A stretch of 16,143 nt of DNA from a virus (IMGVR_UViG_2660238511_000011), one strand, 5' to 3'; shown: positions 2,553 through 8,922, numbered from the stretch's first letter. The notes: generated by a model from the letters alone, not told the origin. Translations and numbers: made by a program.

Positions 2553-4214
2553 TTACACCCCGCTAAATTCTTCCAGTTTCTGGCGGTGGCTGTCGCTTAT
2601 ATCAAAAGCAAAATCCTCATGCTCTGCCTGGAATGTACCAAACGCCATCAGCGCCGCTACGCTCGGGTCTATCTTGTTCGGTGATTTTTTCTTGTTCGGC
2701 TTGATATTGGCGTTCGCGTCACTCTGCATCACGACGTTACTCATCGACCAGGACAACACCGGATCGCCACGATGCACAATCACCCTGCGGTTAACAAAAA
2801 CTTCGAACGATTTCGCCGCCGGACTGAATCTGAGGTAGGTTTGCGGGAACGGCTCCACCTCAAAACCAGCCCCCTGTAATTGCGTCCTGAGATGCGTGGC
2901 GTTCCACGTATCAAAGCCCACCAGCCTGATATTAAATTTCTCCGCATCCTGCATGATGTCATCTCTGATCCGGTCGTAATCAATGCAGTCACCTGGCGTT
3001 GTGCGTATCCAGCCCGCTTTAGCCCACTGGCGATAGACAGCGCGGTTTTTATTGGCGGGGTTCTGTAGCTGGAACTCCGGCAGATAATGACGGGAAATCA
3101 GCATAATGGTTTTACCGACCGGAAAGGCATAGCATACGCTGGAAATATCGCTGGTTGATGATAAGTCCAGCCCCGCGTAACACTCCTGACCGTGTAAATC
3201 TTCCTCCGTGAACGTTCCGGCACACTCAGCCCATGCACCATTACCCATCCACGGGGTAGTCCCCTGACACCAGATATTAAATCGCTTTGTCATCATCTCC
3301 ACCCACTGCGACGGAATACCCCGCGCTTTCTGGATGGTTGAGGCCAGTTTTTCACGATCCACGGAAACATCAATATTAGGGTTCGCCTTTATCCACATCG
3401 CCGGATCATCAACCTCGTTTTCGTCGTCCAGTTCGTAAATCAGTACAAAAATTGAATCGTTGACCTCTTCGCCGTCCAGGATCTGGCAGCAATAATCATA
3501 GTGCTGTTTACAGGCTGAAACGACGTTACTGCCCGATGTGGTAATGGCAAATAACAGCCCTTCGGGACGTGCGCCCATCCCCAGCTCAAGCGCGGAATAA
3601 ACGCCGTTATCGGGGTGTAGGTGGTATTCGTCCACGATGGAAAGACTGGGGTTTGTCCCCTCGATGGTTGCCGCTTTTGCTGCCAGCGGCTTTAACAGGC
3701 TGTTGCTTTTCGGGTGTATCACCTTATGCGCCTGAATATTCACCCGCCTGCGTAACGGTCGGGATAAAAGGCACATCTGACGCGCATTATCAAACACGAT
3801 CCGCGCCTGGTCACGGCTCACCGCTGCGGTGTAGATATCCTGCTGACCGTTCTCCATAATCAGAAACCAGTTAGCCAGAATCGCGGCGGTCGTGGATTTC
3901 GCATTTTTGCGCGGCACTTCGATAAAGGCGCTCGTGTATTTGCGCCGTCCGGTGGCCTTAACCTTAAAGCCGAGGATGCACGCAAAGGCGAACTGCTGCC
4001 ACGGCTCCAGCTCAATGGGTCTGCCACGCATCGGTCCTTTTACGTGCGGGCACACCCTGGAAAAGGCAATAAACCGCTCCACAACCTCACGATCGAACGT
4101 GTAAAGGGGGCTTTTAAGGTCCGAAAAGTACCGTTTAACAGCCTGTTTTAACCGTTTACAGGCCGGAATTTTGCCCGTTTTTACGTCTTCTGCGTACTTA
4201 TTCCAGGCGGTCAA
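2553..4214 (-). CDS. terL: Terminase large subunit (Terminase_1-type ATPase/nuclease), 553 aa
   Basis: Length, Walker-A-like segment VPRKNAKST and overall resemblance to phage large terminases. Its start overlaps the terS 3-prime end. Confidence 0.9.
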   Translation of the reverse strand: MTAWNKYAEDVKTGKIPACKRLKQAVKRYFSDLKSPLYTFDREVVERFIAFSRVCPHVKGPMRGRPIELEPWQQFAFACILGFKVKATGRRKYTSAFIEVPRKNAKSTTAAILANWFLIMENGQQDIYTAAVSRDQARIVFDNARQMCLLSRPLRRRVNIQAHKVIHPKSNSLLKPLAAKAATIEGTNPSLSIVDEYHLHPDNGVYSALELGMGARPEGLLFAITTSGSNVVSACKQHYDYCCQILDGEEVNDSIFVLIYELDDENEVDDPAMWIKANPNIDVSVDREKLASTIQKARGIPSQWVEMMTKRFNIWCQGTTPWMGNGAWAECAGTFTEEDLHGQECYAGLDLSSTSDISSVCYAFPVGKTIMLISRHYLPEFQLQNPANKNRAVYRQWAKAGWIRTTPGDCIDYDRIRDDIMQDAEKFNIRLVGFDTWNATHLRTQLQGAGFEVEPFPQTYLRFSPAAKSFEVFVNRRVIVHRGDPVLSWSMSNVVMQSDANANIKPNKKKSPNKIDPSVAALMAFGTFQAEHEDFAFDISDSHRQKLEEFSGV

Positions 4215-4816
4215 GCTCGTCCTCTTCTTCTGTTTCCGGTGGATTTTTACGGCGGCTTATCGGGTCAAAACCGAGCAAGGAGGCCATTTTTATCATCACT
4301 CTTTCAGCGTCGGATTTTGCGCTTAATGCGGGGTTTCTGCTCTCGCCGCCCTGACTGTTAACAATGCTGAACCCGCGCGCCGCAAGGTCTGCAACGGCTT
4401 TCCGGTAAATGGAGTAGTTGACGCAATACAGTTCCAGATTGCTCCAGTCGGCGGGGGTCAGGTCTCCCCGTTCCGCAAGCTGCCGCGATTTTTCCCGCCA
4501 CTGCTTCACGGCGATATCATCCAGGTAGGCGGGGGCGGGGTTGTCCTGAAAAAGCCCCCCNNNNNNNNNNNNNNNNNNNNNNNNNNNNNNNNNNNNNNNN
4601 NNNNNNNNNNNNNNNNNNNNNNNNNNNNNNNNNNNNNNNNNNNNNNNNNNNNNNNNNNNNNNNNNNNNNNNNNNNNNNNNNNNNGGTTAATCGCTTCGCT
4701 GTGATGCGTTCTGCGCGTCCTGACGCTTTATCTTTATGCCCTGTTTCCTGTGTCTTCCATGCGTCACGCTGCCTTATAAGTCCACGGATAAGGCGGTTTT
4801 GTTCCCGCTCATTCAT
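4198..4816 (-). CDS. terS: Terminase small subunit, P27-family-like, interrupted by an assembly gap of 124 N
   Basis: The C-terminal part (4198..4560) reads PAPAYLDDIAVKQWREK...LELYCVNYSIYRKAVADL...GGESRNPALSAKSDAERVMIKMASLLGFDPISRRK, typical of P27-family TerS. The reading frame is open up to the gap edge. An N-terminal fragment (ATG at 4816, MNEREQNRL...) runs in frame into the other gap edge and overlaps the HNH stop. Confidence 0.6.
4561..4684. other. Assembly gap (124 N) inside terS
   Basis: Run of N characters. Confidence 0.99.
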
Positions 4817-5249
4817 CAGCGTCATACATCCAGTTATTGCGGTTAGCAGCCCGTTCTTCCTCTTCACGAAATCCACCTGCGGCACGCTTGCTTTTTGTTG
4901 CCGGATCAAGCCATTTCGTTTTCTGGTTATGACACGCCTGGCACAATGGTTGATGGTTCCATTCGGGCCAGAAGAGAACATCATCACCGCCATTAATCGG
5001 GATAATGTGATCCACCACCACGGCGGGCGTATATATCCCCTTCTCAAGGCATCGCACGCATAACGGGTTTTTACTCAGATACATGGCGCGGTATTTGTCC
5101 CACTGTCTGGAATATCCACGCGCGCGGCGGTGTCCTCGTCTGGCATCCTCTGCACGCCATGCCGCCCGCCTGTGCTCCTCACACTTGCCGGATTTAACGC
5201 GCCTGTTACAGCCTGGTTCTGTGCATCGTCTTAATGGTTGCCACGGCAT
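4809..5249 (-). CDS. HNH endonuclease, phage packaging-associated, 146 aa
   Basis: Cys pairs and the DHIIP...N...CxxCHNxKT motif. It sits directly upstream of terS/terL, and its start overlaps the upstream stop as ATGA. Confidence 0.85.
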   Translation of the reverse strand: MPWQPLRRCTEPGCNRRVKSGKCEEHRRAAWRAEDARRGHRRARGYSRQWDKYRAMYLSKNPLCVRCLEKGIYTPAVVVDHIIPINGGDDVLFWPEWNHQPLCQACHNQKTKWLDPATKSKRAAGGFREEEERAANRNNWMYDADE

Positions 5250-7754: not shown

Positions 7755-7764
7755 CTGTATGCTG

Positions 7765-8094
7765 TTAATCGTCGTCTTCCGGCAGTGCCAGAATCTTGAT
7801 CGCGTTCGAATCCACCACGCCACCGCCTAAATATTTTTGCGTGAAAATTTTGATGAATCCTGGTTCTGTCAGGTTGTCCGGTCTGGTGCGAACACCTGTT
7901 TCGTGATCAACAATGTAGTAACCGCGTTTGAAGTCACCCAGGGCAATAACGTTATCAGGCATAAACTCCAGATATTCGACCGGAAGGCCCAGCAACGTAT
8001 CAGGATCACCCGCCTGTAAACGGTCGCGCCAGATATAATCACCGTTCGCGTTCTTCACCTTCTGAAGTTTTGCCGCCGTCGTGGAGTTAACCAC
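7765..8094 (-). CDS. Major capsid protein (HK97 fold), C-terminal fragment downstream of an in-frame TGA
   Basis: Same frame as ORF 8095..8970. Translation VNSTTAAKLQKV...TLLGLPVEYLEFMPD continues the capsid protein. Confidence 0.8.
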   Translation of the reverse strand: MVNSTTAAKLQKVKNANGDYIWRDRLQAGDPDTLLGLPVEYLEFMPDNVIALGDFKRGYYIVDHETGVRTRPDNLTEPGFIKIFTQKYLGGGVVDSNAIKILALPEDDD

Positions 8095-8922
8095 TCAGAC
8101 CGCGTTTTTGCGGTATTTTTTACGTAATGCAAATTTCAGGTCGATCAGCGGGTCCGCAGATGTCCACGCCAGAGATTCGGAAGGTTTAATTACCTGCAAC
8201 GTACCAAAATCACGCTCTTTGTCGTTCTTCTCTGCACGGGGTACGGATAAAAAACCTTTTGCTTTTTTGTCACCGTCGCCCACAACCAGATCGCTTTCTT
8301 CGGTTTCCGTGAAGGTGTCGCCAATCTCACCCGTCAGCCATGAAAGGATGTCCACATCGGAAAAATCCACGATTTCCTGTGTGGTGCGCGGGTACGCATA
8401 GACCGGATACAGCTTAATGCTCACCTCGTTAATCTGCGGGGTGCTGGTCTGTTCGCGTGCCTTACCCTCTTCACCGTGGTTAACGGTCGCACCGCCAGCG
8501 GAAACAAGCTGCTTAAACTCGTTGCTGCTGATTTTCTTCACGGTACAGATGCGACGCATGGTGGATTCATCCGCCAGCATTCGCATGATTTCGGTGTTCA
8601 GTTCAGGGATAACGGTATAACCACCATCAGCGGGAACGCCTGTACTTAATGCGCGGGTTTCACCGGTCAGAATGTAGTTGCGTAGTTCTGCGGGGTCAGT
8701 GGTCTGGCTGCTTTTACCTGGCTTGCTGCGCTCTTCGTCTGCAATGGCTTCAAGGCGGGAAATGTCTTTATCGAGGGATTCAGCTTTAGCGCGTAATTCG
8801 TCAAATTTTGTGCCCTCAGCATCGTTAAGACTGCGGTTTTCTTTTTCAGCGTTCTCCAGCATGTCGCGCATCTGATTTTTAATGGCGGTTTTCTGCTGGC
8901 GTAATTCGATTATTCTCTGCAT
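8095..8922 (-). CDS. Major capsid protein (HK97 fold), N-terminal about 275 codons, ending at an in-frame TGA (8095-8097)
   Basis: N-terminal coiled-coil delta-domain-like region (MQRIIELRQQKTAIKNQMRDMLENAEKE...) followed by the capsid core. The likely start is the ATG at 8922, with an AGGA ribosome-binding site 8 nt upstream. The ORF track start at 8970 lies inside a terminator hairpin. Confidence 0.8.
   Translation of the reverse strand: MQRIIELRQQKTAIKNQMRDMLENAEKENRSLNDAEGTKFDELRAKAESLDKDISRLEAIADEERSKPGKSSQTTDPAELRNYILTGETRALSTGVPADGGYTVIPELNTEIMRMLADESTMRRICTVKKISSNEFKQLVSAGGATVNHGEEGKAREQTSTPQINEVSIKLYPVYAYPRTTQEIVDFSDVDILSWLTGEIGDTFTETEESDLVVGDGDKKAKGFLSVPRAEKNDKERDFGTLQVIKPSESLAWTSADPLIDLKFALRKKYRKNAV

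Follow-up and report, generated by a model that had tools for sequence, protein, structure and literature searches.

Why do the head genes of the viral sequence IMGVR_UViG_2660238511_000011 stand in an order that differs from the one usual in HK97-type phages? The stretch analysed here (16,143 nt; the window) carries an operon that opens with the major capsid gene and closes with the gene for the large terminase subunit (TerL), and an earlier sequence-only reading had taken this layout to suggest that the module was assembled independently rather than captured recently as a contiguous phage block. We are highly confident that the window represents a phage-inducible chromosomal island of the capsid-forming type (cf-PICI), namely the form that the prototype EcCIEDL933, located between phoQ and roxA, takes in Shigella flexneri, and that its head-operon order is ancestral to the proteobacterial cf-PICI clade and fixed within it. 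As a discovery the order carries little weight: it is an already published hallmark of cf-PICIs, which the sequence-only reading had not recognised, and it does not set this allele of the prototype apart.

Gene identity, strand and order were checked with Pfam and PHROGs, which gave, in the direction of transcription on the minus strand, capsid, protease, portal, Hc1, Ad1, HNH endonuclease, small terminase subunit (TerS) and TerL. The HK97-fold major capsid gene (8922 to 7765; 385 codons, PF05065), with an SxGxxAD maturation motif at residue 93, is followed by the genes for an HK97-family prohead serine protease (S78; 7153–7725, 190 aa, PF04586, phrog_80), the portal (5940–7151, 403 aa, PF04860), which is 100% identical to a Shigella flexneri protein, the head closure or head completion protein Hc1 (Phage_HCP; 5542–5943, PF05521, phrog_25; 112 aa in relatives) and the gp6-like head-tail connector Ad1 (5249–5545, 98 aa, PF05135, phrog_40). 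The packaging part comprises the HNH endonuclease (4809–5249, 146 aa) and a 5′-truncated TerS of the P27/Terminase_4 family (4198–4560), both assigned by Pfam and PHROGs, and TerL (2553–4214, 553 aa) with TerL_ATPase and TerL_nuclease domains and a match to phrog_9. Counting a small open reading frame (ORF) between HNH and TerS, the operon has nine genes, and the junctions between them are overlapping or tight save for a 39-nt gap after the capsid gene and the interval between HNH and terS. The sequence-only reading had the gene list, strands and order right, and its end points, the terL stop at 2553 and the capsid ATG at 8922, were exact; what it called adaptor and connector are the PGAP/Pfam names of Hc1 and Ad1. 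The window thus holds the features that define a cf-PICI, namely its own capsid, protease and portal, Hc1 with Ad1, and HNH with TerS and TerL, and it lacks those of an HK97-like tailed prophage, that is, tail and lysis modules and the canonical gene order.

The synteny comparison that the sequence-only reading had proposed was run on 164 related loci (80 species-representative genomes from more than 25 genera, 80 viral contigs and four further records), fetched with a 13-sequence portal alignment at a portal similarity of at least 60%. The arrangement capsid-protease-portal-(Hc1)-Ad1-HNH-TerS-TerL was found on one strand in 164/164 loci, with 0 exceptions. The genera include Escherichia/Shigella, Klebsiella, Enterobacter, Citrobacter, Erwinia, Pantoea, Pectobacterium, Serratia, Yersinia, Proteus, Providencia, Xenorhabdus, Photorhabdus, Gilliamella, Frischella, Pasteurella, Haemophilus and others, and the order is fixed over three bacterial families. 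From integrase to TerL these elements span a median of 14.0 kb and at most 14.6 kb (n = 81), which leaves no room for a tail module. Passages of Alqurainy et al. (bioRxiv 10.1101/2022.09.08.507074) describe this order, with capsid, protease, portal and connectors ahead of hnh-terS-terL, as the conserved organisation of proteobacterial cf-PICIs; they state that the modules of PICIs and helpers ‘have different genetic organisations’ and report that mutation of each module gene abolished transfer of EcCIEDL933, except for gene 1792, whose mutation affected it severely.

In HK97-type tailed phages the order was TerS-TerL-portal-protease-capsid-Ad1-Hc1-tail in 85/85 loci, five of them annotated tailed phages (the nearest by each marker, plus HK97) and 80 of them SfIV-like viral contigs from a portal-anchored viral scan, which are mostly near-identical prophages and hence a narrow sample. 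The usual order had therefore been given correctly, and an arrangement present in 164/164 related loci and 0/85 tailed-phage loci is not a matter of chance. The five annotated phages, BiPBO1, VW-6S, SfIV, Klebsiella ST13-OXA48phi12.4 and HK97, some with HNH before TerS, have the same families for all eight genes and share with the island the sub-block HNH-cos-terS-terL, in which a G-run, a C-rich block and a T-rich block precede terS; they differ in the canonical order with tail genes after it, in genome size (~37–59 kb vs ~15 kb) and in sequence (25–37% protein identity to the island; Hc1, 50–52%). The reordering had been regarded as open to two objections, wrong ORF strands and an identical order in close tailed relatives. 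The strands hold, by Pfam and PHROGs as well as by the same order in genomes free of N runs, and no tailed relative with this order was found, neither among 50,697 phage records, where tailed phages are at most ~40% identical, nor in the 85 tailed-phage loci, all of them canonical.

Among 50,697 phage records, identities of at least 58% to TerL, portal or capsid occurred in only four or five satellite-sized records, and the rest did not exceed 40%. These matches were vB_KppS-Ant (16.5 kb), Pasteurella Pmp7 (10.7 kb) and Pmp8 (15.3 kb), a 3.8-kb fragment and the 3′ end of a 106-kb Klebsiella record. Upon inspection vB_KppS-Ant and Pmp8 proved to be satellite-type, with integrase, primase and the same order, and in the 106-kb record the tblastn matches lie in the same order, accompanied by integrase and primase homologs. 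A tail-protein screen of the 164 loci left one apparent exception, the metagenomic viral contig L128, which we rejected as a tailed phage with island order: its tail genes belong to a second, canonical head set that opens with a 5′-truncated terL. Between 8209 and 21203 this contig shows a complete island-type module, ~530 nt of non-coding sequence, the truncated terL and a canonical HK97-like portal-to-major-tail block, the HK97-like tail genes lying 5 kb downstream of the island-type module. It is either a satellite in or beside the terL of a separate prophage or an assembly chimera.

The surroundings of the operon are those of a PICI. The window opens with phoQ (1–1461, plus strand), and all genes from ~2258 to its right end lie on the minus strand, the last being a tyrosine integrase (14914–16143) whose ATG is the final codon of the window (16143–16141). 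An attachment-site-like (att-like) direct repeat ~80 nt past the phoQ stop (1537–1611) forms the left boundary of the island; its partner falls past the integrase, beyond the window end, so that the window shows the left repeat only. The core of this repeat, ACTACACCATTAACTACACCG, at 1542 in the window, occurs in two copies 15,228 nt apart in EDL933, and a 75-nt imperfect direct repeat pair flanks the island 14,908 nt apart in the sibling L001, which gives att-bounded sizes of 15.2 and 14.9 kb, respectively, for these two; cf-PICIs are expected to measure ~10–18 kb between their att repeats. With the integrase, an AlpA-family regulator (14351–14539, minus strand; PF05930) and a D5-type primase/helicase representing the replication module (10629–12377, minus strand; family assignment), the PICI backbone is present; the remaining genes encode DUF4222 and small proteins without assigned function. 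Pfam and PHROGs yielded no tail or lysis family in any tested island ORF, and 19 tail and neck proteins from five phages had no match in the window; in ~15 kb there is no space for a tail module.

The same island sits between phoQ and roxA in complete E. coli genomes; of 5,426 such genomes, 538 carry its head and packaging module. EDL933 carries a single copy at this site, with the same nine-gene arrangement and 97.1% nucleotide identity to the copy of E. coli RM6927 used as the query. The window is 99.85% identical to S. flexneri SFBU1023 (L005) across 10.5 kb, which together with the identical portal makes it the Shigella flexneri allele of EcCIEDL933. Compared with the prototype, whose capsid has the SxGxxAD motif at residue 93 in keeping with passages of its description, the module is 96–98% identical at the nucleotide level and the proteins are 97–99.8% identical overall (TerL 546/553, portal 394/403, capsid 378/385, HNH 145/146, integrase 408/409). 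The two differ in a stop at W276 of the capsid gene and a 97-nt deletion at the cos-like element and terS start of the window, in the replication module (D5-type primase in the window, DUF927 protein in EcCIEDL933) and in the genes between primase and capsid. The region 9206–12377 of the window, set against 16135–19928 of the EDL933 locus, is mosaic, and EDL933 there has the DUF927 protein, SSB and a PerC regulator.

A more distant cf-PICI in K. pneumoniae ATCC 13883, which we take to be the type strain DSM 30104, host of KpCIDSM30104, and the near-identical vB_KppS-Ant share the order and the cos-like element upstream of terS, at identities to the window of 80% for the portal, 81% for TerL, 83% for TerS and 65% for the capsid. 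They differ in another integrase and primase and in an Hc1 of 38% identity, a different tail-docking cassette. Classical Gram-negative PICIs such as EcCICFT073 resemble the window in the int-alpA-primase backbone, the size class and their dependence on a helper phage, but, according to the literature, they lack their own capsid, portal, connectors and TerL and remodel helper capsids instead. SatelliteFinder treats tail and holin/lysis genes as forbidden components for cf-PICI.

The copy in the window carries lesions. Codon 276 of the capsid gene has changed in frame from TGG to TGA (8095–8097), whereas EDL933, RM6927 and 26 other relatives have TGG, and the gene is probably a pseudogene here. 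A 97-nt deletion between CCCCGCC microhomologies (junction ~4527–4540) has taken one half of the cos-like element, the one with the C-rich and T-rich blocks, along with the ribosome-binding site, the terS ATG and the first nine codons; the G-rich half survives at 4537–4560. Both lesions, missed by the sequence-only reading, occur in the window and S. flexneri SFBU1023 only and are absent from ~28 close relatives and from EDL933. Together, the nonsense codon and the deletion indicate that this copy is probably dead, with loss of transfer predicted, and judged from its sequence the island is most likely immobile in this lineage. It illustrates satellite decay through loss of capsid and cos/terS. 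In addition, the phrog_2512 homolog (12982–13390, minus strand) is split into the overlapping ORFs 12982–13182 and 13127–13390, probably by a further frameshift in the Shigella copy. Two runs of N have another nature. A masked run of 124 N (4561–4684) hides where the small ORF ends and the cos-like element begins; a run of 22 N (5640–5661) within Hc1 is flanked by a 41-nt duplication. Each lengthens the window by exactly 63 nt relative to the sibling SFBU1023, and both look like artefacts of assembly joins or masking.

The sequence-only reading had further held that HNH and terS overlap and that the packaging site had thereby moved from its usual place upstream of terS. Neither claim stood. 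The HNH gene stops at 4809 and the terS frame begins below 4560, and in intact relatives 273–291 nt separate the HNH stop from the terS ATG (median 273 nt, 148 loci), the interval being shorter in Pasteurellaceae and Orbaceae (~100–150 nt). It contains a small conserved ORF that overlaps the HNH stop, of which the window shows the 5′ part (4685–4825, minus strand) and which is annotated as a hypothetical coding sequence in relatives (5996–6178 in L001). In Enterobacterales the ORF is 50–61 aa long with the C-terminus RDRELMECFRNR (60–61 aa, ending in RDREVMECFRNR, in intact relatives), and its protein sequence is conserved in 12 genera of that order. Tests of three Pasteurellaceae/Orbaceae representatives did not recover it, and neither did the pattern search in Kosakonia. 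Its probable counterpart in EcCIEDL933 is gene 1792.

Behind this ORF follows a non-coding element consisting of GGGGTGGGGG, ~35 nt, ACC(A/G)CCCGCCCCCTCAAATTTTTAYGCACGGTGATTTTTTTTGAAAATAA, ~25 nt and the terS ATG, which is conserved in ~25 genera of the three families. Its core reaches ~80% mean pairwise identity across 19 genera, a somewhat favourable figure since the sequences were picked by pattern, compared with 63% for a coding segment of terS and 55% for one of the portal gene. The element is collinear with the true cos junction of HK97, i.e. G-run, ACCGCCGCC, cohesive end, T-rich block and terS, where the right end of the phage DNA is the boundary of the C-rich and T-rich blocks, and it can likewise be aligned to the spacer between HNH and terS in an HK97-like Klebsiella phage. 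The linear record of vB_KppS-Ant ends inside the element and restarts ~80 nt on, and cf-PICI DNA is described with cohesive ends in passages of the literature. We infer that cos would lie in its usual place directly upstream of terS and that the block HNH-cos-terS-terL would retain the phage arrangement. The element offers a concrete, testable candidate for the location of the cf-PICI packaging site.

How the order arose is a separate matter, on which the idea of independent assembly without recent capture fared unevenly. The low identity to tailed phages (at most ~40%) and an order fixed in three families support the view that no contiguous phage block was captured recently; independent assembly is not established, as seven of the eight genes diverge in step throughout the clade (r = 0.82–0.96, values inflated by many close E. 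coli loci, although the genus table gives the same trend), and the module has thus been inherited as a unit since the clade ancestor. Hc1 differs from the rest. It is 50–52% identical to HK97 gp7 and to the Hc1 of a Klebsiella phage, whereas the other head proteins reach 25–37% to any phage, and at equal portal identity it falls into classes of ~40%, ~53% and undetectable similarity. It therefore looks like a tail-docking cassette that can be exchanged while its position stays the same, in agreement with published host-range work and with passages reporting exchange of the adaptor and connector to suit the tails of different helpers. Two simple routes to the order were rejected: read circularly from cos, the island gives TerS-TerL-...-capsid-protease-portal-Hc1-Ad1-HNH, which is still not the phage order, and a single inversion fails because every gene keeps its strand. 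The order requires either several transpositions or piecemeal assembly.

Piecemeal assembly would mean that the module was built gene by gene or block by block from different phages, with the inverted sub-orders as a scar of accretion onto a PICI that already had terS and terL. The failure of one inversion or a circular permutation to produce the island order speaks for it, as do the differing best phage matches (Brucella BiPBO1 for TerL, Klebsiella prophages for the portal, Pseudomonas VW-6S for the capsid), the deviating identity and three classes of Hc1, and the Pasteurella elements, in which extra neck genes are scattered on either side of the module. The ranking of best phages, however, is within noise at 30–37% identity, the seven genes co-diverge tightly, and the block HNH-cos-terS-terL preserves the phage order and cos layout; moreover, Alqurainy et al. 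read the capsid and TerL phylogenies, in the passages concerned, as a joint ancient acquisition of a module ‘incorporated together’ long ago. Whatever its kind, the origin was a single event that belongs to the clade ancestor rather than to this island. We consider assembly from different phages rather unlikely; the data support an origin far back in time and a layout that has stayed fixed, with which block capture followed by rearrangement and gene-by-gene assembly are both compatible.

Much less probable still is that the window shows no satellite at all but what is left of a defective HK97-like prophage after the loss of its tail and lysis genes, with its order shuffled by deletions and rearrangements. 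Every head gene is of an HK97-type family, this copy does carry inactivating lesions, and the Sakai annotation names the same element ‘prophage Sp7; untypable’. But a compact int-alpA-primase element of ~15 kb is intact with identical order in more than 25 genera and recurs in a tenth or so of the complete E. coli genomes counted above, an invariant order is not expected from random decay, and the 97%-identical prototype works experimentally as a satellite, as passages of its description report. Least probable of all, and barely worth entertaining, is a reordering mimicked by misassigned strands or ORFs or by mis-assembly. The two N runs, each with its 63 additional nucleotides, invite the thought, but they lie inside genes or the spacer, away from the gene-order breakpoints, and the same order is found in the complete, N-free genomes of RM6927, EDL933 and S. 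flexneri SFBU1023. Several points do weigh against the assignment to a cf-PICI with an ancestral order. The 164 loci were chosen by portal similarity and form one clade, so that their invariant order represents one ancestral event and not repeated convergence; the replication module is unlike that of the prototype, which makes the window a mosaic variant rather than an identical copy; the function of this copy is presumed by analogy with the prototype; a sequencing error is a conceivable source of the capsid TGA, yet this codon occurs in two independent assemblies, those of the window and SFBU1023; and the literature passages searched state no mapped cos position for a cf-PICI.

The 39-nt gap directly after the capsid stop holds a GC-rich, terminator-like hairpin with a T-rich tail (7734–7755, minus strand) of the form AGGGGC-loop-GCCCCTTT(T). 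An explicit stem search with a control found this hairpin in 73 of 85 distinct related sequences (59 with the T-rich tail) compared with 19 of 492 portal-internal controls (3 with the tail), a strict automatic criterion having undercounted it (9/25). Its stem is constant while 27 different loops occur, and in HK97 a putative terminator is likewise annotated after the capsid gene. All downstream genes of the prototype are needed for efficient transfer, so some read-through past the hairpin would be required. It may act either as a leaky terminator or by stabilising the mRNA end, and so set the ratio of capsid to the other proteins, and its conservation suggests how stoichiometry might be set. 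That the capsid-first order is itself functional, the hairpin letting a single short operon make far more capsid than portal, connectors and terminase, and/or that the reversed sub-orders record stepwise promoter-proximal accretion onto a PICI with terS and terL, is a speculation to which we give little credence; neither idea is stated in the keyword-searched passages of the cf-PICI and satellite literature. A sigma-70 promoter scan of the window gave nothing above shuffled expectation. Two further terminator-like hairpins (9186–9203 and 9549–9566, minus strand), 363 nt apart and with the identical stem-loop AGCCGGAGCAATCCGGCT, flank a small gene (9223–9525) upstream of the capsid operon.

For the cf-PICI in the window, the working of the module can be sketched after EcCIEDL933, for which passages of Alqurainy et al. 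report experiments showing helper induction, small T=4 capsids of island protein and transfer with helper tails. An intact copy would excise and replicate upon induction by a helper phage and build its own small T=4 capsids of the HK97 fold; its HNH-TerS-TerL complex would recognise and cut the island’s own cos, presumably in the non-coding element just upstream of terS, and the filled heads would be completed by helper-phage tails docked via Ad1 and Hc1. Through the conserved hairpin behind it, the promoter-proximal capsid gene may be expressed more strongly than the genes further downstream.

Some smaller observations concern neighbouring genes and related records. A small phrog_1561 gene (2258–2539, minus strand), 87/93 residues identical to its EDL933 homolog, stands last in the window’s series after terL and follows terL in only a subset of the related loci, and tRNA and Rfam scans of the window gave no match. 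Several GenBank entries filed as phages are flagged here as cf-PICI-type satellites (LR881103, OR544139 and the 3′ end of PQ569648). In vB_KppS-Ant the annotated ‘tail length tape measure protein’ (2036–4333) is without Pfam support, and in the 106-kb Klebsiella record the element, located at the 3′ end, stops within the HNH-terS spacer. The Pasteurella elements (Pmp8, L004, at 14914–15321 and 8244–8702, and L078) have a gpU-like tail terminator upstream of the capsid gene and an HK97-gp10-like protein downstream of terL, two extra neck genes whose positions are again unlike their placement in phages.

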